A DNA stretch of 64,000 nucleotides from a bacterium (GCA_963661975.1 CAVLDN010000006.1:30421-94420), one strand, 5' to 3'. Shown: positions 8,289-17,472, counted from the first letter of the stretch. Notes: generated by a model not told the origin, from the sequence alone. Made by a program: numbers and translations.

Positions 8289-9101
8289 ATGAAATTCGCA
8301 CTTCAACTTTATTCCGTACGAACCGATCTCGAATCGGATTTCAGGGGCACGCTTCGCCGCGTGAAGGAGCTTGGCTATGACGGCGTTGAATTCGCCGGGC
8401 TTTACGGGCAGGATCCGAAGGAGCTTTGCGGTTATCTTTCCGAAATCGGGCTTGAACCGGCCGGCGCACACGTTTCGTTTGCCGAAATGCGCGACGATAT
8501 CGAAAAGGTCATAAGCGATTATTCCGCTGTGGGCTGCCGCGATATTGCCGTTCCCGGTCTTGCACCGGAGGATCGCCACGGCACGCCCGGCTGGGGAAAG
8601 ACGGTTGCGGATATCCGTGCAATAGGCGAAAAGGCCGCGGCGGCGGGAATAAGACTCAGCTACCATAACCACGATTTCGAATTTGAGAAGGCCGGCGGGG
8701 AATATGTGCTTGACAGGCTCTATTCCGATATTCCCGCAAGCCTGCTCGAAACCGAACTTGATCTTTGCTGGGTGCGCGTTGCGGGCGAAGACCCTGCGGC
8801 ATACCTGCGCAAATACGCAGGCCGCTGCCACCTTGTCCACTTCAAGGATTATGTCGGCAGCAAGCAGGCCAATATGTACTCTCTTATCGGCATAGAGGAC
8901 GACGGCAAAAAGCCGGATGTGCAGGCGTTTGAGTTCCGCCCGCTCGGCAAAGGCGTTCAGAATATCCCGCTGCTCTATAAGACCGCCGTTGAATGCGGCG
9001 CCGAATGGATCATCGTCGAGCAGGACGAGCCTTCCATGGGGCTTTCCCGCATGGAATGTGCGGAGATCAGTATAAACACCCTTCGCTCTGTCGCAAAATA
9101 A
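8289..9101 (+). CDS. sugar phosphate isomerase/epimerase (xylose isomerase-like TIM barrel)
   Basis: MKFALQLYSVR..GYDGVEF..YHNH..E.D pattern of the AP_endonuc_2/TIM family. Confidence 0.8.
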   Translation: MKFALQLYSVRTDLESDFRGTLRRVKELGYDGVEFAGLYGQDPKELCGYLSEIGLEPAGAHVSFAEMRDDIEKVISDYSAVGCRDIAVPGLAPEDRHGTPGWGKTVADIRAIGEKAAAAGIRLSYHNHDFEFEKAGGEYVLDRLYSDIPASLLETELDLCWVRVAGEDPAAYLRKYAGRCHLVHFKDYVGSKQANMYSLIGIEDDGKKPDVQAFEFRPLGKGVQNIPLLYKTAVECGAEWIIVEQDEPSMGLSRMECAEISINTLRSVAK

Positions 9102-9161
9102 CAAATAAAAAGGAAAGGCGCAATGCCCCCGCGGAATCTTCGGCGGGGGCGGTGAAGAAAT

Positions 9162-9968
9162 ATGTCAGAATGCACACATGATTGCTCGACCTGCGGCGCG
9201 GATTGCGCTTCACGCGGGGCACAGCCGATCGAAAAGGAAAAACTTCATAAAGGAAGCAGCTTCAAAAAGGTTATCGCCGTTGTGAGCGGCAAGGGCGGCG
9301 TGGGCAAATCGCTCGTCACCTCTTTGCTTGCCGTCGGCGCGGCGCGGCGCGGGGAACGCGTTGCCATACTTGATGCCGATGTCACCGGGCCTTCCATTCC
9401 GCGTATTTTCGGGATGAAGGGCGGTGTTACCGCGGAAGAGGACTGCATGGTTCCGCCGCAGAGCAAAACCGGGATAAAGATAATGTCCGTCAACCTGCTT
9501 CTTCCGGATGAAACCGACCCCGTCGCCTGGCGCGGCCCGGTCATCGCCGGCTGCGTGAAGCAGTTCTGGACCGATGTCGACTGGGGCGAAAACGACACGA
9601 TGTATATAGATATGCCTCCGGGAACCGGCGATGTTCCGCTCACCGTTTTCCAATCCATTCCCGTGGACGGAATGGTCATAGTCACCTCTCCGCAGGAGCT
9701 GGTTTCAATGATCGTCGAAAAGGCGGTCAAGCTCGCGGAGCTTATGAACATCCCCGTGCTCGGCGTTGTGGAAAATTATTCCTACTTCAAATGCCCGGAT
9801 TGCGGCAAGGAGCATCACATCTTCGGCGAAAGCCGCATCGATACCGTTGCCGCGCAGTACGGAATACCCCGTATCGCAAAACTGCCGTTCGATCCGAAGC
9901 TTGCCGCCGCGTGCGACAAGGGCACCATCGAGCTTGCCGTGCGTGAGCTTGACCTTGCGGGGCTGTAA
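9162..9968 (+). CDS. Mrp/NBP35/ApbC-family Fe-S cluster carrier ATPase
   Basis: Deviant Walker A SGKGGVGKS and conserved CPDCG motif. N-terminal Cys-rich CTHDCSTCGADC. Confidence 0.9.
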   Translation: MSECTHDCSTCGADCASRGAQPIEKEKLHKGSSFKKVIAVVSGKGGVGKSLVTSLLAVGAARRGERVAILDADVTGPSIPRIFGMKGGVTAEEDCMVPPQSKTGIKIMSVNLLLPDETDPVAWRGPVIAGCVKQFWTDVDWGENDTMYIDMPPGTGDVPLTVFQSIPVDGMVIVTSPQELVSMIVEKAVKLAELMNIPVLGVVENYSYFKCPDCGKEHHIFGESRIDTVAAQYGIPRIAKLPFDPKLAAACDKGTIELAVRELDLAGL

Positions 9969-9986
9969 AAACCGATGTTTACCGAA

Positions 9987-10018
9987 AAAGGAGGGCGACG
10001 CCCCCTCCTTTTTGCCGC
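9987..10018 (+). terminator. rho-independent terminator after the mrp-like gene
   Basis: Stem aaaggaggg/ccctccttt with loop cgacgcc, followed by TTTTT. Confidence 0.7.
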
Positions 10019-10149
10019 CCGCTATGTGAAACGCTTTTGCTGCAGGCATAAACCGTGCGGACTTTCGGCGCGATAACGGTTATGCTGCGTGCGGCGGCCG
10101 TTCTTGCCGGCGGCAAGAGAAAAGACCGCGTTTAATAACGCATAAAACA

Positions 10150-10192
10150 AAAAACGCATAAAAAAGACGCTTCCCGCGGGGGAGGCGTCTTT
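10150..10192 (-). terminator. rho-independent terminator after rbsK
   Basis: Stem aagacgc(t)tcc/gga(g)gcgtctt, followed on the minus strand by a T-rich run. Confidence 0.7.
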
Positions 10193-10251
10193 TGCCGTTT
10201 GTTGTTCCGTATTGACTTATTGTTCCGTATCGCCGTGAAACGCCGGGGCTT

Positions 10252-11178
10252 TCAGCCGTTTGCGAGAAGCTCGTTGACCTGCGCGAGTGTCGGCACTGAG
10301 TTCATTGAGCCGCGCTTTGAAACGGCAAGCGCACCCGCGGCGTTGGCGAAGCGCGCACTTGCGATTATATCGCCGGAGCGGAGGTATTCGGTTGCCAATG
10401 CGGCGGTGAAGATATCGCCCGCGGCGGTCGTATCGACGACAGGTGTGTCGAAGGGCGAGATGATGTCGCAATATTTGCCGTCGTAGACATAGCAGCCTCT
10501 GCCGCCGAGCTTGAGAACGACATATTTTGTCGGCACGCGGTTGCACAGCGCGATCGAAGCGCGCAGGCAGTTTTCAAGGCTGTCCGGACGGATGCCGGTG
10601 AGTATTTCGGTTTCGGTTTCGTTCGGGGAGAGTATTTCGACGCGTTCCAGCTTTTCCAGCGGGAAATCCGGCGTTGCGGGGCCGGCATCGACAATGAGCG
10701 GTATGGATTCGTCCGCGGCAAGGCGTGCGGCGCTGATGACGGTGTCGCGGTTGATCTCGAACTGAACAAGCACGGCATCCGGATAGCAGGTGAAGGCGGC
10801 TTCAAGGTCGCCGAGGTTGATTTTGTCGTTCGCACCGGGGTAAACTATAATGCGGTTCGTGCCGTCCTTTTCGACGGTGATCACGGCAAGCCCGGTCTGC
10901 TCGCGCCGATCCACGCGGATGTATTTTGTGTTGATGCCGCGTTCGTCAAGCGCACGGAGCATACGGTCGCCGTAGGCATCATCCCCCACGCGTGTGCAGA
11001 AAATGCTGTCCGTACCGAAGGCGGCAACGGCCGCCGCGGCGTTTGCACCCTTGCCGCCGGGCGTGAAGGAGTATTCTCCGCCGGAGCGCAGCGTTTCGCC
11101 CGGGGCGGGGAGATAGGGTGTCGTCAGTACAAAATCAATGTTCGTGCTGCCGACGGTGAGTATCCTTTTTGCACACAT
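10252..11178 (-). CDS. rbsK: ribokinase
   Basis: GGKGANAAAA and DTTAAGDIFTAAL (PfkB signature 2) motifs. 308 aa. Confidence 0.9.
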   Translation of the reverse strand: MCAKRILTVGSTNIDFVLTTPYLPAPGETLRSGGEYSFTPGGKGANAAAAVAAFGTDSIFCTRVGDDAYGDRMLRALDERGINTKYIRVDRREQTGLAVITVEKDGTNRIIVYPGANDKINLGDLEAAFTCYPDAVLVQFEINRDTVISAARLAADESIPLIVDAGPATPDFPLEKLERVEILSPNETETEILTGIRPDSLENCLRASIALCNRVPTKYVVLKLGGRGCYVYDGKYCDIISPFDTPVVDTTAAGDIFTAALATEYLRSGDIIASARFANAAGALAVSKRGSMNSVPTLAQVNELLANG

Positions 11179-11234
11179 GATACGATCCCTTCCGTTACCT
11201 GTAAATTTGCGATAAACACAGTAATTATACGGTT

Positions 11235-11263
11235 ATTTTACAACACCGGCCGTGAGTTGTCAA
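11235..11263 (-). promoter_or_regulatory. sigma-70-type promoter for rbsK
   Basis: Minus strand reads TTGACA-N17-TAAAAT, about 55 nt upstream of the ATG. Confidence 0.6.
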
Positions 11264-11426
11264 CTTTTTCTTTTTTGCGCCCGTGCTTTGTTGCCGTGCC
11301 GCCGCGGCAAGCGTTCGAATATGTCGCCGTAATACATACACTTTTCTTCCCGAAAAATGTTTGTGCCGTTGCGGAGCGGGGATTCGCAAAAACGCAAATA
11401 AAGCGCCTGCCGCACCGCGAAAAATC

Positions 11427-11455
11427 TTGACACGCAAGCCCGGCGGTGGTATATT
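11427..11455 (+). promoter_or_regulatory. sigma-70-type promoter for the MinD-like / MGS-like / hisS / aspS genes
   Basis: TTGACA-N17-TATATT. Confidence 0.6.
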
Positions 11456-11501
11456 GTATAGTGTATATTTGTATCACGGGGGTGAGTGCGCTACGGCAAG
11501 A

Positions 11502-12311
11502 GTGATTTTTGTTACCGGCTTCAAGGGCGGTGTCGGCAAGACGACCGTCGCCGCGAATGTAGCCGCATCGCTTTGCGCCCTCGGGCGCACGGTGCTCCTT
11601 ATCGACGGGGATTTCGGCATGCGTTGCATGGACATGGTCCTCGGCGTGGAAAGCGAAACGCTTTTCGATTGCAGCGATGTGCTTTCGGGCGAGTGCTCGG
11701 AACGCGCTGCGATGACGGAGATTCCCGGCTGCGCGGGGCTTTCGTTCATTCCCGCGCCGATGAATTACCGTGCCCGCTGCACCGATAAGGCGGCATTCGC
11801 CGCAATGGTGGACAGTCTGCGCGGCGATTTCGATTACATCATCATAGATTCCTGTGCCGAAGCAACGGATTATTACACCGCATTCGCTGCGGCTGCGGAT
11901 GAAGCGCTGATAGTCACTCTGCACCAGTCCACATCCGTCCGCGCCGCCGAAAAGACCGCCGCAAGGCTTTACGCGCTCGGGCTGAAAAGCGCGACGCTTG
12001 TCGTGAACGGCTTCCGCGAAAGGTTCGCCGCTGCGGGGGAACTTCCGTCCATTCCGGATATCATAGAGCGTTCCTCGGTGCGGCTTTCGGGCGTTGTCCC
12101 GTTTGACGAAGAGCTTCCCGCACGGCAGGAGGCGGCTTACCTTGCCTTCACGGGGGATAAACGCCGCAGGGCAAGCGCAAGTGAAATTGCGTTTCTGAAC
12201 ATTGCCGTTCGGCTGGACGGCGGAAGAGTCAGGCTGTTTGACGGGGTATCCCGGCCGAAGCGCCGGTGCGATGCCGTCTGCATATACAAATCGATACGGA
12301 GGGAAAAATGA
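11502..12311 (+). CDS. MinD/ParA-family P-loop ATPase (orphan, no minC/minE nearby)
   Basis: RVIFVTGFKGGVGKTTVAANVA deviant Walker A and IDGDFGMRCMD. Start is uncertain: GTG at 11502 was chosen because the promoter at 11427-11455 excludes the ORF-track start at 11283. Confidence 0.75.
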   Translation: MIFVTGFKGGVGKTTVAANVAASLCALGRTVLLIDGDFGMRCMDMVLGVESETLFDCSDVLSGECSERAAMTEIPGCAGLSFIPAPMNYRARCTDKAAFAAMVDSLRGDFDYIIIDSCAEATDYYTAFAAAADEALIVTLHQSTSVRAAEKTAARLYALGLKSATLVVNGFRERFAAAGELPSIPDIIERSSVRLSGVVPFDEELPARQEAAYLAFTGDKRRRASASEIAFLNIAVRLDGGRVRLFDGVSRPKRRCDAVCIYKSIRREK

Positions 12312-12721
12312 ACATTGCGATTATTGCAAACGACAAGAAAAAAGAGCTTGTGACCGAATTCTGCATTGCGTACTGCGGCATTCTTTCGCGCCACCGTCTG
12401 TGCGCGACGGCCATTACCTGCAAATACATTTCGGAAGCCACCGGCCTGCATATAGAAAAGCTGCTTCCCGGCGCACGCGGAGGGAGCGAACAGATAGCCT
12501 CCAAAGTGGTATACGGCGAGGTGGATCTTCTGATCCTGCTGCGCGATACGGATAACGATCTCGAATATGCCGAGACCGAACCCGGACTTATCCGTCTGTG
12601 CGACAAATACACCGTCCCCGTGGCGACAAATATCGCAACGGCGGAGGCGCTTGTTCTTGCGCTCGACAGGGGCGATCTCGACTGGCGCGACAACATGAAA
12701 ACAAACAAAGGCATTTTTTGA
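12308..12721 (+). CDS. methylglyoxal synthase-like (MGS-fold) protein with substituted catalytic residues
   Basis: IAIIANDKKK..CATAITC..GARGGSEQI..LLRD..PVATN aligns to MgsA. GGAGGGA RBS. The ATG overlaps the MinD-like stop (ATGA). Confidence 0.8.
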   Translation: MNIAIIANDKKKELVTEFCIAYCGILSRHRLCATAITCKYISEATGLHIEKLLPGARGGSEQIASKVVYGEVDLLILLRDTDNDLEYAETEPGLIRLCDKYTVPVATNIATAEALVLALDRGDLDWRDNMKTNKGIF

Positions 12722-12722
12722 C

Positions 12723-13985
12723 ATGAACAGACTGCAAAGACTGAAAGGAACAATGGACATACTCCCCGGTGAATCGGAGGTATGGCAATATATAGAAAAA
12801 GTCCTTGCCGAAGCGGCGCGCCTTTCCGGTTTTTCGGAAATACGCACGCCGACAATCGAGCTTACCGATCTTTTCTGCCGCGGTGTCGGCGATACGACGG
12901 ACGTTGTCAGCAAGGAAATGTACTCCTTCGATGATAAGGACGGCAGCAACATTTCGCTCCGCCCTGAGGGTACCGCGGGCGTTGCCCGCGCCGTTATCGA
13001 AAACGGACTTTATGCCGGCGCGATGCCGCTGAAGCTTTATTACACCGGCAGTTTCTTCCGCCGCGAAAAGCCGCAGGCGGGCAGAAGCCGCGAATTCACC
13101 CAGTTCGGCACCGAACTTTACGGCAGCACCCGTCCGGAAGCGGATGCGGAGGTTATACTGCTTGCGCGGGATATTTTCCGCCGGTTCGGGCTTTCCGGAA
13201 TAAAGCTGCACATAAATTCCATCGGCTGCCCGGAATGCCGCCCGAATTACCGCAAGGCGCTTACGGATTATTTTTCCGCGCATTCGGAGAACCTTTGCGA
13301 CACCTGCCGCGAAAGACTCATGCGGAACCCGCTGCGTGTGCTCGACTGCAAGAATCCCTCGTGCAGGGAGCTTGCAAAGGGTGCGCCGAAAACGCTTGAT
13401 CATCTCTGCGACGATTGCAGAACGCATTTCGATTCACTTTGCGGACTGCTCGATTCCTGCGGCTGCGATTATATTATCGATCCTTCCGTTGTGCGCGGGC
13501 TGGATTATTATACCGGGACGGTATTTGAATTTATCGCCGAAAGCATCGGAGCGCAGAGCACCGTTTGCGGCGGCGGCAGGTATGACGGGCTTCTCGAATC
13601 CATCGGCGGCCCCGCTTTGCCCGCTGTCGGCTTCGGCATGGGAATAACGCGGCTGATACAGGCGCTGCGCGATGAAAATCTGATACCGCAGCCGGACACC
13701 GGCGCGGATGTATATATTGCCCCGATGGGCGCGGAAGCGGCGAAGAAGGCTTTCACACTTGCGGAGGGGCTGCGCTGCCACGGTGTTTCCGCCGTGACGG
13801 ATCTTTGCGCAAGATCGGTGAAGGCGCAGATGAAATATGCGGATAAAACACACGCCAAATACGCGCTCGTTATCGGCGATACTGAGCTTGAAAACGGCAC
13901 TGCCGAGCTCAGACCGATGCGCGGAGGCGAAAATATAAAGGCTGATTTAAGTATCAACGGTATAATCAATGCGATACGCGAATGA
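12723..13985 (+). CDS. hisS: histidine--tRNA ligase
   Basis: Class II motifs (LRPEGT, FRRE.PQAGR.REF.Q) and the HisS insertion. Confidence 0.95.
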   Translation: MNRLQRLKGTMDILPGESEVWQYIEKVLAEAARLSGFSEIRTPTIELTDLFCRGVGDTTDVVSKEMYSFDDKDGSNISLRPEGTAGVARAVIENGLYAGAMPLKLYYTGSFFRREKPQAGRSREFTQFGTELYGSTRPEADAEVILLARDIFRRFGLSGIKLHINSIGCPECRPNYRKALTDYFSAHSENLCDTCRERLMRNPLRVLDCKNPSCRELAKGAPKTLDHLCDDCRTHFDSLCGLLDSCGCDYIIDPSVVRGLDYYTGTVFEFIAESIGAQSTVCGGGRYDGLLESIGGPALPAVGFGMGITRLIQALRDENLIPQPDTGADVYIAPMGAEAAKKAFTLAEGLRCHGVSAVTDLCARSVKAQMKYADKTHAKYALVIGDTELENGTAELRPMRGGENIKADLSINGIINAIRE

Positions 13986-14030
13986 CGCCGAATAAGGAAA
14001 ACGAAACTTATTATTAAGAAGGTACGGATA

Positions 14031-15791
14031 ATGGAAAAGAGAACTCATTACTGCGGCGAACTGCGTGCCGCCGATATCGGCAGCAGGGTGACTGTCGCCG
14101 GTTGGGTCAGAAAACAGCGCAATCTGGGCAGCCTGATATTTATCGATCTGCGCGACAGGACGGGTTATGTCCAGCTTGCATTTGACGAAAACAGTGCGCC
14201 CGAGCTTTTCGAAGCGGCTTCCTCCGTGAGGAGCGAATATGTGCTTGCCGTTTCGGGCACCGTGCGCGAAAGATCGAGCAAAAACCCCGATATCCCCACC
14301 GGTGATATCGAAATATACACCGAAACGCTTTCGGTTCTCGGCGAAAGCGAAACCCCGCCCTTTGATATAACCGACGACTGCAAGGCAAACGAGGAACTGC
14401 GTCTGAAATATCGTTATCTCGACCTGCGCCGCCCGGTTTTGCAGAACAATATCATGTTCCGCGCCAAAACGGCAAAGGCGGTGCGCGATTATCTTTGCGA
14501 CAACGGCTTTATCGAGATCGAAACTCCGATGCTCATAAAGAGCACCCCGGAGGGCGCGCGCGATTACCTTGTTCCCTCCCGTGTGCATAAGGGCTCGTTC
14601 TATGCGCTTCCGCAGTCGCCCCAGCTTTACAAGCAGCTTTCCATGGTTGCCGGGTTCGATAAATACTTCCAGCTTGCGCGCTGCTTCCGCGATGAGGACC
14701 TCCGCGCCGACCGTCAGCCCGAATTCACACAGATAGATATCGAGATGAGCTTTGTCGACACCGAGGATGTCCTTGCCGTCGGCGAAGGGCTTGTGAAGCA
14801 CATCTTCAAAACCGTTATGGGCGTGGATATCGAAACGCCTATTCCGAGGTACACATACAAAGAATGTATGGAGCGCTACGGTTCCGACAAGCCGGATATC
14901 CGCTTCGGCATGGAGATACAGAATGTTTCCGAAGCCGTGAAGGGCTGTTCCTTCCCGGTGTTCGCCTCCGCCGTTGAAGCGGGCGGCAGCGTTCGCGCCA
15001 TCAATCTGAAGGGCTGCGCCGACAAGCTCACCCGTAAGGAAATCGACCGCCTTGCCGATTACGCAAAGGGCTGCGGCGCAAAGGGGCTTGCCTGGGTACG
15101 CCGCCACGATACGGACAGCGGTTCCTTCCTGAAACACATGACGGAATCCGAGCTTGCCGCGCTTTATGCCGCCGCGGGCTGCGAAAAGGGCGATGTCCTG
15201 CTTATTCTTGCGGATACGGACACAAACCGTATGCTTTCCCAGCTCGGCCAGCTCCGCGTGGAAGCCGCAAACCGTCTCGGGATCGAAAGAGCGGGTTACA
15301 GATTCCTTTGGGTTGTGGAAATGCCTTTCTTCGAGCTGGATGCCGAAACGGGCGAATGGGTTGCGATGCACCATCCGTTCACCGCGCCGCTTGATGAATG
15401 CCGCGAATATCTCGAAACCGACAAGGGCAGTGTCCGCGCCAAGGCGTATGACCTTGTTCTGAACGGGATCGAGCTTTCCAGCGGTTCCATAAGAATTACC
15501 GATCCGAAGCTGCAGGCGAAGATATTTGAGCTGCTCGGACTTTCGGATGAGGAAGCCAGGATCAAATTCGGCTATCTGCTCGAAGCCTTCAAATACGGCG
15601 CGCCGCCCCACGGCGGCATGGCGATCGGGCTGGACAGGCTTGTGATGCAGATGCTCGGCGCTTCGAGCCTGCGTGATGTTACCGCCTTCCCGAAGGTGCA
15701 GAACGCGAAGGAACTCATGACCGACTGCCCTGCGGGCGTACCGCAGAAGGCGCTTGACGATCTTGGGATCGTAATAAAAGAAAAGGAATAA
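14031..15791 (+). CDS. aspS: aspartate--tRNA ligase
   Basis: OB-fold N-terminus, QSPQLYKQ, FRDEDLRADRQPEFTQ, GGMAIGLDRL. Confidence 0.95.
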   Translation: MEKRTHYCGELRAADIGSRVTVAGWVRKQRNLGSLIFIDLRDRTGYVQLAFDENSAPELFEAASSVRSEYVLAVSGTVRERSSKNPDIPTGDIEIYTETLSVLGESETPPFDITDDCKANEELRLKYRYLDLRRPVLQNNIMFRAKTAKAVRDYLCDNGFIEIETPMLIKSTPEGARDYLVPSRVHKGSFYALPQSPQLYKQLSMVAGFDKYFQLARCFRDEDLRADRQPEFTQIDIEMSFVDTEDVLAVGEGLVKHIFKTVMGVDIETPIPRYTYKECMERYGSDKPDIRFGMEIQNVSEAVKGCSFPVFASAVEAGGSVRAINLKGCADKLTRKEIDRLADYAKGCGAKGLAWVRRHDTDSGSFLKHMTESELAALYAAAGCEKGDVLLILADTDTNRMLSQLGQLRVEAANRLGIERAGYRFLWVVEMPFFELDAETGEWVAMHHPFTAPLDECREYLETDKGSVRAKAYDLVLNGIELSSGSIRITDPKLQAKIFELLGLSDEEARIKFGYLLEAFKYGAPPHGGMAIGLDRLVMQMLGASSLRDVTAFPKVQNAKELMTDCPAGVPQKALDDLGIVIKEKE

Positions 15792-15797
15792 AATCCA

Positions 15798-16763
15798 ATG
15801 ATCGAAATTACGGATATACGCAAAAGCTTTGGGGATAAGCACGCGGTGGACGGGATCTCATTTACCGTTGCCGAGGGCGAAATAATGGGCTTTCTCGGGC
15901 CGAACGGCGCGGGAAAGAGCACGACGCTGAACATTATCACGGGGTATCTCTCCGCCGACAGCGGCGTCGTGAAGATCGACGGGACGGATATCCTTTCCGA
16001 TCCGATCAAGGCAAAAAAGGATATCGGCTTCCTGCCGGAAATACCGCCGCTTTACCCGGAAATGACGGTCGCGGAATATCTGGATTTCGTTTACGAGCTT
16101 AAAGGCTGCAAGCTCCCGCGCAGGCAGCATATCAAGGAGATATGCGAGGTCGTGAAGATCTGGGATGTCTCCGGACGCCTGATAAAGAACCTTTCCAAGG
16201 GATATAAGCAGCGTGTCGGTATCGCGCAGGCGCTTATCGGCAATCCGAAGGTGCTCATATTTGACGAGCCGACCATCGGTTTGGACCCGCGCCAGATAAT
16301 CGAGATACGCAATCTTATCAAGATGCTCGGTAAGGAGCATACCATAATCCTTTCCACGCATATTCTGCCGGAGGTACAGGCGGTGTGCGACAGGATCGTT
16401 GTCATCAACAAGGGCAGAATCGTCGCCAACGAAAAGACAGAGGATCTTATCAATGCCGTGGACGGCTCACGCAAGCTCGTCGCAAAGATAGTCGGGCAGG
16501 AGGACGATGTCCTCAAGGCGCTGCGCGCGCTGCCCGGTGTCAAGACCGCGGATATCATCGGCAAACGCGACACCGATTCCGTCAGCTACCTGCTCGAATC
16601 ACAGGAGCGTGTCGATATCCGCAAGCCGCTGTTCTATATGCTTTCCTCCAAGGGCTGGCCGCTTATAGGGCTGGAAGGCGTGGAACTTTCGCTCGAGGAC
16701 ATATTCATCCGCCTTGTCGGCAGGGATAAAGAAGCAAAAACCAAAGGAAAAGGGGGAAAATAA
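15798..16763 (+). CDS. ABC transporter ATP-binding protein (ABC-2 / GldA-like)
   Basis: Walker A GPNGAGKST, signature LSKGYKQR, Walker B LIFDEP. Confidence 0.9.
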   Translation: MIEITDIRKSFGDKHAVDGISFTVAEGEIMGFLGPNGAGKSTTLNIITGYLSADSGVVKIDGTDILSDPIKAKKDIGFLPEIPPLYPEMTVAEYLDFVYELKGCKLPRRQHIKEICEVVKIWDVSGRLIKNLSKGYKQRVGIAQALIGNPKVLIFDEPTIGLDPRQIIEIRNLIKMLGKEHTIILSTHILPEVQAVCDRIVVINKGRIVANEKTEDLINAVDGSRKLVAKIVGQEDDVLKALRALPGVKTADIIGKRDTDSVSYLLESQERVDIRKPLFYMLSSKGWPLIGLEGVELSLEDIFIRLVGRDKEAKTKGKGGK

Positions 16764-16764
16764 G

Positions 16765-17472
16765 ATGTTTGCAATATATATACGCGAACTGAAATCCTAT
16801 TTTCTTACCGCTATCGGGTATGTTTACTGCGGTATGTTCCTTATCGTTTCGGGGCTTGCCTTCGCGCAGTGCACCCTGCTCAAACAGAGCACGGACAGCA
16901 TCGGCGAATACTTTGTGTGGATGATAATCATCTTCGCCGTGCTTATCCCGCTGCTCACCATGAAGCTTATCGCAGAGGACCGCAAGACAAGAACGGATCA
17001 GATACTTCTCACAAGTCCGGTCTCGGTTACCGGAATCGTGATGGGCAAATACCTTGCGGCACTCACCGTTTATGCCGCAACCTTCCTTGTGAACAGTTTT
17101 AATTTCGTTCTGCTCGCAAAATACGGCGATCCGAACGCTATCTCGATACTCACCAACATTTTGGGCGTGTTCCTGCTCGGCGCGGCGTTTATCGCCATCG
17201 GCATATTTCTTTCCTCGCTCACCGAAAATCAGCTCATCGCTGCGGTTTCGGCAATGGGTGTCAATGCCGCAATGCTGCTTGTGAGCCTGCTTGCCGACAA
17301 TATCTCCGGCACGGCGCTCAGAACCGTCGTAAAATGGTTCTCGGTGCTTGACCGCTTCACGCCGTTCACGCATCAGATGCTCGATGTTTCGGCGATAGTT
17401 TATTATCTGAGCCTTGCGGCGGCATTCCTCTTCCTCACGACGCGCGTTATCGAAAAACGCCGTTGGTCGTAA
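16765..17472 (+). CDS. ABC-2 type transporter permease (GldF-like)
   Basis: Six predicted TM segments. ATG at 16765 lies 2 nt after the ATPase stop. MFAIYIRELKSYF start typical of the ABC-2 family. Confidence 0.8.
   Translation: MFAIYIRELKSYFLTAIGYVYCGMFLIVSGLAFAQCTLLKQSTDSIGEYFVWMIIIFAVLIPLLTMKLIAEDRKTRTDQILLTSPVSVTGIVMGKYLAALTVYAATFLVNSFNFVLLAKYGDPNAISILTNILGVFLLGAAFIAIGIFLSSLTENQLIAAVSAMGVNAAMLLVSLLADNISGTALRTVVKWFSVLDRFTPFTHQMLDVSAIVYYLSLAAAFLFLTTRVIEKRRWS

Follow-up and report, generated by a model that had tools for sequence, protein, structure and literature searches.

Within the window, the whole stretch of 64,000 nucleotides that was analysed, a gene for a MinD-like ATPase is followed on the same strand by a gene for a small protein of the methylglyoxal synthase (MGS) type, and then by hisS and an aspS-like ORF (Table 1). 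The TGA stop codon of the MinD-like gene (12309–12311) overlaps the ATG of the MGS-like gene (12308–12310), and a single nucleotide separates the MGS-like stop codon from the start of hisS. This ATGA overlap had been pointed out in a preliminary description of the DNA, and both the ORF map and the sequence bear it out.

Table 1. Features of the minD-like/MGS-like locus, numbered from the first nucleotide of the window
Feature	Coordinates	Strand	Basis
Sigma-70-type promoter-like site (TTGACA, 17 nt, TATATT, TG before the -10)	11427–11455	+	11/12 matches
MinD-like ORF (assigned as a diverged MinD orthologue), 269 aa counted from GTG 11502	11502–12311	+	ORF map, profile matches
ATGA overlap of MinD-like stop and MGS-like start	12308–12311	+	ORF map and sequence
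MgsA-derived ORF (predicted pseudoenzyme), 137 aa	12308–12721	+	ORF map, alignment, model
hisS (histidyl-tRNA synthetase)	12723–13985	+	Pfam tRNA-synt_His, E 1.8e-51
aspS-like ORF, 586 aa	14031–15791	+	ORF map; class II aminoacyl-tRNA synthetase motifs in the translation and the assignment in the preliminary description

The promoter-like site upstream of the MinD-like gene is the sole such site on the plus strand between 11000 and 16200, and we infer that it is the promoter of the operon. No promoter-like site was found on the plus strand before hisS or aspS, nor any G+C-rich, T-tailed terminator-like site (at most 4 G-C pairs), and an Rfam search of positions 9000–17000 gave no match to a T-box or other RNA element before hisS. 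Because internal promoter-like and terminator-like sites are absent from the plus strand before hisS and aspS, the minD-like, mgsA-like, hisS and aspS genes are likely to be co-transcribed. The transcript shared with hisS-aspS that had been suggested previously thus fits the sequence, and the aspS-like ORF is probably the last gene of the operon.

The start of the MinD-like gene is uncertain. GTG 11502 is one possible start codon; the corresponding codon in a 94%-identical relative is GTA rather than GTG. An ACG at 11493, located 7 nt past a GGGGGTGA Shine-Dalgarno sequence, sits where relatives carry an ATG, TTG or CTG start, and translation may begin at this codon instead of GTG 11502.

In Pfam and NCBIfam scans, the ATPase matched families of the CbiA/ParA/MinD type. 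TIGR01968 (MinD) was the best of these at 152.5–155 bits, under its cut-off of 212.9, and the best PDB match was MinD from Aquifex (4v03, E 1.6e-30). The motifs known from the MinD proteins of MinCDE and MinCD-DivIVA systems are intact, namely the deviant Walker A with its signature lysine (GFKGGVGKTT), the switch (DGDFGMR) and Walker B (DYIIIDS). The protein nevertheless differs from those MinD proteins in several respects: RAAEK takes the place of the canonical RDADR throughout the genus, the usual C-terminal ...FxKxKKLFG motif is absent, translation starts at a weak or non-AUG codon, and the C terminus is a basic amphipathic tail with a non-canonical helix predicted at residues 255–267 (RCDAVCIYKSIRR; AlphaFold2, pLDDT 89.9). 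MinD orthologues from sister families end in ...VPLxKL and have no tail. The best MinD-family match lay directly upstream of the mgsA-like gene in 36 of 41 genomes, in one of which the adjacency is inferred because the two genes are split between contigs, and in four genomes the upstream orthologue scored 217–232 bits, over the MinD cut-off. Because these orthologues from sister families, bona fide MinD proteins encoded at the same position, exceed the cut-off, the window ATPase is assigned to the diverged end of a series of MinD orthologues. The preliminary description had called it an orphan MinD/ParA ATPase; neither its position nor the graded similarity supports a separate ATPase of the ParA type.

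The host is an Oscillospirales-type gut bacterium with a genome of 1.43 Mb that is 97.5% complete. Related records comprise uncultured Clostridiales/Oscillospiraceae MAGs, Ca. Coliplasma, Ca. Avispirillum, Clostridium sp. CAG:448, Butyricicoccus and Intestinibacillus. The genome holds no better MinD match than the window ATPase and no second MgsA match, canonical or otherwise. The lack of minC and minE that had been noted for the neighbourhood extends to the whole genome, and MinC_C and MinE were likewise not found in 41 related genomes from 17 families, beyond one 20-bit match at noise level. Across a whole order, a MinD orthologue appears to have been retained with neither MinC nor MinE, which raises the testable question of what MinD does alone. 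DivIVA is present in the host genome and Spo0A was not found in it. An MreB match of 76 bits in a 628-aa ORF adjoining the window was rejected, as it lies at the level expected of a DnaK-type actin fold.

The 137-aa product aligned without gaps to MgsA from B. subtilis (6f2c; phmmer E 3.8e-28). Its AlphaFold2 model (pLDDT 82.8) matched MgsA structures in Foldseek with TM scores of 0.83–0.92 and an rmsd of 1.4 A, and the Foldseek alignment to 6f2c had 46–47% identity. Asp71 is the catalytic base of MgsA, and His98, His19 and Asp101 are also catalytic, as established by mutant and structural work on the E. coli enzyme; MgsA positions are given here in E. coli numbering. In the alignment to 6f2c, all four are replaced in the window protein: H19 by N8 (codon 12329–31), D71 by S60 (12485–87), H98 by Y87 (12566–68) and D101 by T90 (12575–77). 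D9 and D80 are retained. The MGS fold, N8, S60 and a lost His98 had all been read from the sequence previously; each of these is upheld, with the His98 position now specifically a tyrosine.

Without any of the four catalytic residues, the protein is predicted to be unable to make methylglyoxal by the known mechanism, in agreement with the earlier suggestion that it was unlikely to do so. The picture at the phosphate site is more mixed. The TGTTG segment of MgsA, which had been described as altered, reads TAITC in the window protein, with T47 changed to Ile, and S65 is changed to Pro at the same site; these two positions do vary, but K12, T34, T37 and G55 correspond to K23, T45, T48 and G66, which are conserved across the family. 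The window protein also has the FCIAYC motif and the C-terminal, clade-specific RGDLDWR motif of its clade.

Compared with the MgsA of Firmicutes, the window protein therefore has the same fold and length, shares K23, T45, T48 and G66, and belongs to the same genomic lineage, the copy that is linked to the min cluster. It differs in lacking His19, Asp71, His98 and Asp101, at positions that now evolve freely, and in scoring 95.7 bits against the TIGR00160 equivalog model, below the cut-off of 146.9. Canonical members of the min-linked clade are real enzymes, since the MGS of C. difficile 630 is active (PMC7843640). After MgsA, the best structural matches of the model were the non-catalytic allosteric domain of carbamoyl-phosphate synthetase (CPS; TMq 0.65–0.68 in Foldseek). 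The CPS domain uses the MGS fold solely for binding small ligands, either phosphorylated compounds or nucleotides, and catalyses nothing. It is part of an enzyme of more than 1000 amino acids and is approximately 20% identical, whereas the window protein is free-standing and derived from MgsA.

Conservation was compared across 125 members of the min-linked clade, a set gathered partly with patterns derived from window-like sequences and so biased towards dead forms. K23, T45, T48, G70 and Q73 were strictly invariant in this set, and D20 and G66 had one exception each (entropy 0.07 bits). T47 and S65 varied. At the former catalytic positions, entropy was 2.96 bits for D71, 2.94 for H98, 3.15 for D101 and 1.97 for H19, and within the genus the D71 position is occupied by S, L, I, A, V or G.

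Estimates of dN/dS were 0.015–0.09 for the MGS-like protein, 0.05–0.18 for HisRS and 0.07–0.2 for the MinD-like protein, which indicates that purifying selection on the MGS-like protein is at least as strong as that on the essential HisRS. Identity to the window protein within the genus was 71–82%, compared with 60–72% for orthologous HisRS and 45–66% for the MinD-like protein. Of the 41 related genomes, 40 carry the MGS-like gene, and they cover 16 of the 17 families of the order that were sampled. Complete sequences were read for 30 of the loci in these 40 genomes, and the ORF was intact in every one. Taken together, the substitutions and the dN/dS values identify the protein as a predicted pseudoenzyme for methylglyoxal synthesis that is under strong purifying selection.

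In the tree, the window protein falls in a 28-member clade (support 99) within an 88-member clade composed entirely of dead forms (support 97). Well-supported branches force at least two independent losses of the catalytic set, and parsimony gives seven. Dead copies also lie directly after minE in genomes with complete MinCDE (Ruminiclostridium herbifermentans, WP_137698286.1; Thermoclostridium caenicola; and an Acetivibrio sp.). The idea that catalysis is lost in step with MinC/MinE was considered and rejected, as dead copies occur both with full MinCDE and with MinD alone. Four genomes each encode an unlinked, canonical MgsA of the E. coli type alongside a Min-linked copy. In three of them (G059, G061 and G087) the Min-linked copy is low-scoring and has lost D71 and H98; in the fourth (G036) its score exceeds the TIGR00160 cut-off and D71 alone is lost. 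One further genome, G039, has a second, weaker MgsA match.

The preliminary description presented the association of an MGS-like protein with such an ATPase as a new pairing. A search for MgsA, MinD, MinE and MinC covered 120 Clostridia genomes, each at least 90% complete. Both MinD and MgsA were found in 60 of them, and in 54 of these 60 the genes share a strand and are no more than 1.7 kb apart. Three arrangements were seen: minC-minD-minE, a gene of approximately 1.1 kb and mgsA (13 genomes); minD-minE-mgsA or mgsA-like (19 genomes); and minD followed directly by mgsA or an mgsA-like gene, with no MinE (22 genomes including the window, one of which has MinC). One locus was verified to have MinC upstream of minD, then MinE, RodA/FtsW, MgsA and an M23 peptidase, and a PBP2-type transpeptidase precedes minD in near-canonical Oscillospirales loci. 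The linkage of minD and mgsA is class-wide Clostridial synteny; it is ancestral and, as a gene order, not new. What had been taken for a new pairing is therefore left over from an ancestral pbp-minCDE-rodA-mgsA cluster. The conservation of the pair beyond this genome is real and recurs across the order and the class. On this comparison of gene orders, the locus is a reduced form of the Clostridial cluster pbp-minC-minD-minE-rodA-mgsA, from which the diverged MinD and the cluster-type MgsA alone remain in the host. Both components are of known kinds: one is a pseudoenzyme descended from MgsA, the other a remnant in which only MinD persists. A search of the searchable library found no literature on MinD-MgsA linkage or on an MGS pseudoenzyme.

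The order minD-like, mgs-like, HisRS-family gene was found nearly everywhere among the 30 loci. At eight loci of the genus the HisRS-family gene is merely 25–28% identical to the window hisS, and at one locus it lies approximately 0.8 kb downstream. The spacing between the minD-like and mgs-like genes at 24 genus loci was -4 in eight (including the window), -1 in two, +3 or +6 in five and 24–49 nt in nine.

The function that we favour for the MGS-like protein, as an evenly balanced judgement, is a non-catalytic, ligand-sensing role in a division or envelope pathway, with MinD a likely but dispensable neighbour. The protein would bind a phosphorylated metabolite, for example a triose phosphate or phosphate, without turning it over, and its output would bear on cell division or envelope growth. 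This output is proposed because the gene is linked to that pathway across the whole class. MinD would be the likeliest neighbour in the pathway and would not be required for the core function of the protein. By analogy, such a sensor would resemble the regulatory MGS-like domain of CPS, which is one of two precedents for the mechanism; the other is that MgsA is reported to affect how B. subtilis cells elongate (Shin et al., 2017, as cited in PMC10714963). The changes of T47 to Ile and S65 to Pro at the phosphate site of the window protein count against a sensor. The link to division comes from gene order alone, and the role may be unrelated to division because a large subclade, linked to thrS, keeps the protein without MinD.

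In Clostridia mgsA is linked almost universally to minD, minE and rodA, and catalysis has been lost repeatedly under strong selection. Both facts point to a role of the MGS fold that is not enzymatic and has not been described before, and this role may connect carbon flux to division. The finding makes a connection of carbon metabolism with division open to test. A bolder version can be put forward as a doubtful conjecture: the MgsA of the min cluster would ancestrally have been a catalysis-independent metabolic sensor that binds MinD and has a direct effect on the machinery of the division site, it would have replaced MinE or MinC in MinD-only lineages, and the host lineage would have kept just that role. 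If true, glycolytic overflow would be coupled to where or when the cell divides.

An MGS-like oligomer could alternatively be an obligate partner of MinD, acting as an adaptor, ATPase activator or cargo in place of MinE or MinC. In McdA/McdB and PomZ/PomXY, for example, the gene of a ParA/MinD-type positioning ATPase has a partner gene downstream, and in the window, too, a gene for a small, partner-like protein directly follows the ATPase gene in one predicted operon. Here the downstream protein has a conserved enzyme fold and survives without the ATPase, unlike the partners in those pairs, and its interaction with the ATPase is putative. In favour of a partnership are translational coupling, with the ATGA overlap or a spacing of at most 6 nt at 15 of the 24 genus loci, the direct adjacency of minD and mgsA in all 22 sampled genomes with both genes and no MinE, and the failure to find MinC or MinE across the 17 families of the order.

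The pair is nevertheless not kept everywhere. Within the genus itself, G007 and G008 have no MinD-like gene and carry a spoIIID-like gene in its place, with the MGS-like protein kept at approximately 72% identity. In a subclade of approximately 30 members the MGS-like gene lies upstream of thrS with no minD nearby, and five genomes of this subclade have no MinD orthologue anywhere in the genome; the best MinD-family matches in these five and in G007 and G008 reach 59–68 bits. The MGS-like protein is thus retained without MinD in at least seven genomes. When 53 MinD-linked sequences were compared with 30 MinD-less ones, no column was conserved solely where MinD is present, and conserved blocks including RGDLDWR were equally invariant in both groups. 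No MinD-MGS fusion was seen among the 120 best homologues of the window ATPase and 120 of the Agathobaculum ATPase, and the MGS-like protein shows no obvious N-terminal peptide that is free and basic like those of MinE/ParB. Because the protein persists under the same constraints in MinD-less genomes, an obligate partnership with MinD is unlikely. Of the earlier proposal that the MGS-like protein is a partner of the ATPase, the conserved adjacency stands and the obligate role is weakened; strict co-occurrence of the pair does not hold.

It is also conceivable, though quite improbable, that the protein has become an enzyme for another reaction on a phosphorylated substrate, using non-classical residues. 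The very strong purifying selection would suit such an enzyme, as would the invariance of D9, D80, K11, K12, E13, T34, T37, Q62, E71 and D73, which surround the former pocket. The four classical catalytic positions, however, are all free to vary, no new invariant acid or base has appeared at or beside them (GG[x][E/Q/N/H]Q varies), and the sequence names no new activity.

A regulator directed at HPr or Crh, in which the dead protein binds an HPr-family protein and feeds carbon control, is very unlikely. MgsA of B. subtilis is known to bind Crh (Dickmanns et al., 2018, as cited in PMC10714963), and the host genome does encode one HPr-family protein. That protein has the GLHARPA motif with His15 as well as the Ser46 motif and is of the HPr type, not the Crh type, and there is no genomic linkage; we give the idea low weight because this His15-bearing, HPr-type gene is the only member of the family in the genome. 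Least credible of all is a decaying enzyme with residual activity, adjacent to minD through inherited gene order that has no present function: the synteny is indeed ancestral, and some relatives have D71E as their sole change, which might leave weak activity, but the intact ORFs in the fully read loci, the low dN/dS, the identity above that of HisRS and the MinD-like protein, and the replacement of all four catalytic residues in the window all speak against decay.

The assignment of function in public records is affected by these results. The window protein scores 93 bits against NF003559, over the cut-off of 84, and relatives are labelled "methylglyoxal synthase" in public records because scores such as this one exceed that cut-off; dead forms carry the name as well. 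The mislabelled family is large and strongly conserved in gut Clostridia, and its catalytic residues are missing. It includes Butyricicoccus, Agathobaculum, Intestinibacillus, Ca. Coliplasma and CAG:448 in the Oscillospirales, and Ruminiclostridium, Thermoclostridium and Acetivibrio among others. Metabolic models that assign a methylglyoxal bypass to these organisms are probably wrong, since the family members lack the catalytic residues. As a minor observation, one 90% cluster oddly mixes MinD-like and MGS-like proteins.

Among the relatives compared (loci L005, L006, L007, L012, L018 and L034), the MinD-like gene has ATG, TTG or CTG at its conserved start position, except in L034. ACG occupies this position in the window and in L034, its 94%-identical relative (region 11478–11504); the ACG of the window (11493) follows the Shine-Dalgarno sequence GGGGGTGA after 7 nt, and the GTG at 11502 corresponds to GTA in L034. 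Weak non-AUG initiation seems to be tolerated by, or selected for in, the MinD-like gene. The MGS-like gene has an ATG start with a strong Shine-Dalgarno sequence.

Two same-genus genomes, G007 (L026) and G008 (L027), lack the MinD-like gene, and both carry a SpoIIID-family gene between the ribokinase-like and MGS-like genes. In another genome, G029, a region adjoining the MGS-like gene matched the MinD model over the first 73 positions only (59 bits); it could be what is left of a minD gene that is truncated or in decay. Class II aminoacyl-tRNA synthetase genes are recurrent neighbors of the MGS-like gene, differing by lineage: hisS begins 1 nt downstream in the window's lineage, and thrS lies approximately 250–300 nt downstream in a MinD-less subclade (many of loci L041–L108; e.g., L057).

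Positions of the features discussed
Feature	Position	Model match
Mrp/ApbC-type Fe-S carrier ATPase	window 9162–9968	PF10609, E 7e-86
MGS-like gene	window 12308–12721 (+)	
MreB_Mbl-family match	G000:C6:95978–97009	MreB_Mbl
Partial MinD match	G029:C7:8067–9388	MinD
Locus lacking the MinD-like gene	L026 1483–3374	
MGS-like gene with thrS	L057 4001–6593	
Member of mixed protein cluster	L112:4001–4408	

A second P-loop ParA-superfamily protein, the Mrp/ApbC-type ATPase, is encoded 1.5 kb upstream of the MinD-like gene; this protein is not related to MinD and carries an extension rich in Cys, MSECTHDCSTCGADCASRG, at its N terminus.

The only MreB_Mbl-family match in the window's own genome (76 bits) falls in a 628-aa ORF just outside the window, and identification of this ORF as MreB was rejected because the match is DnaK-like. 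MinC, MinE and Spo0A were not found in the same genome; together with the DnaK-like nature of the sole MreB_Mbl match, their absence suggests that the host would be a non-rod, non-sporulating cell.

The 90%-identity cluster containing the L112 sequence (1001 members) combines MGS-like proteins of 136 aa with MinD-like P-loop NTPases of 247 aa from Agathobaculum and Butyricicoccus. The two kinds of member may be linked through some fused gene call; direct searches with the window's and the Agathobaculum ATPase found no MinD-MGS fusion among the best 120 homologues of each.

Four cysteines of the MGS-like protein, C19, C23, C32 and C98, show little or no variation within the Oscillospirales clade that has lost the catalytic residues, and they might form a metal or redox site. 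C19 is common to all min-linked copies, and C23 and C32 are specific to this clade.
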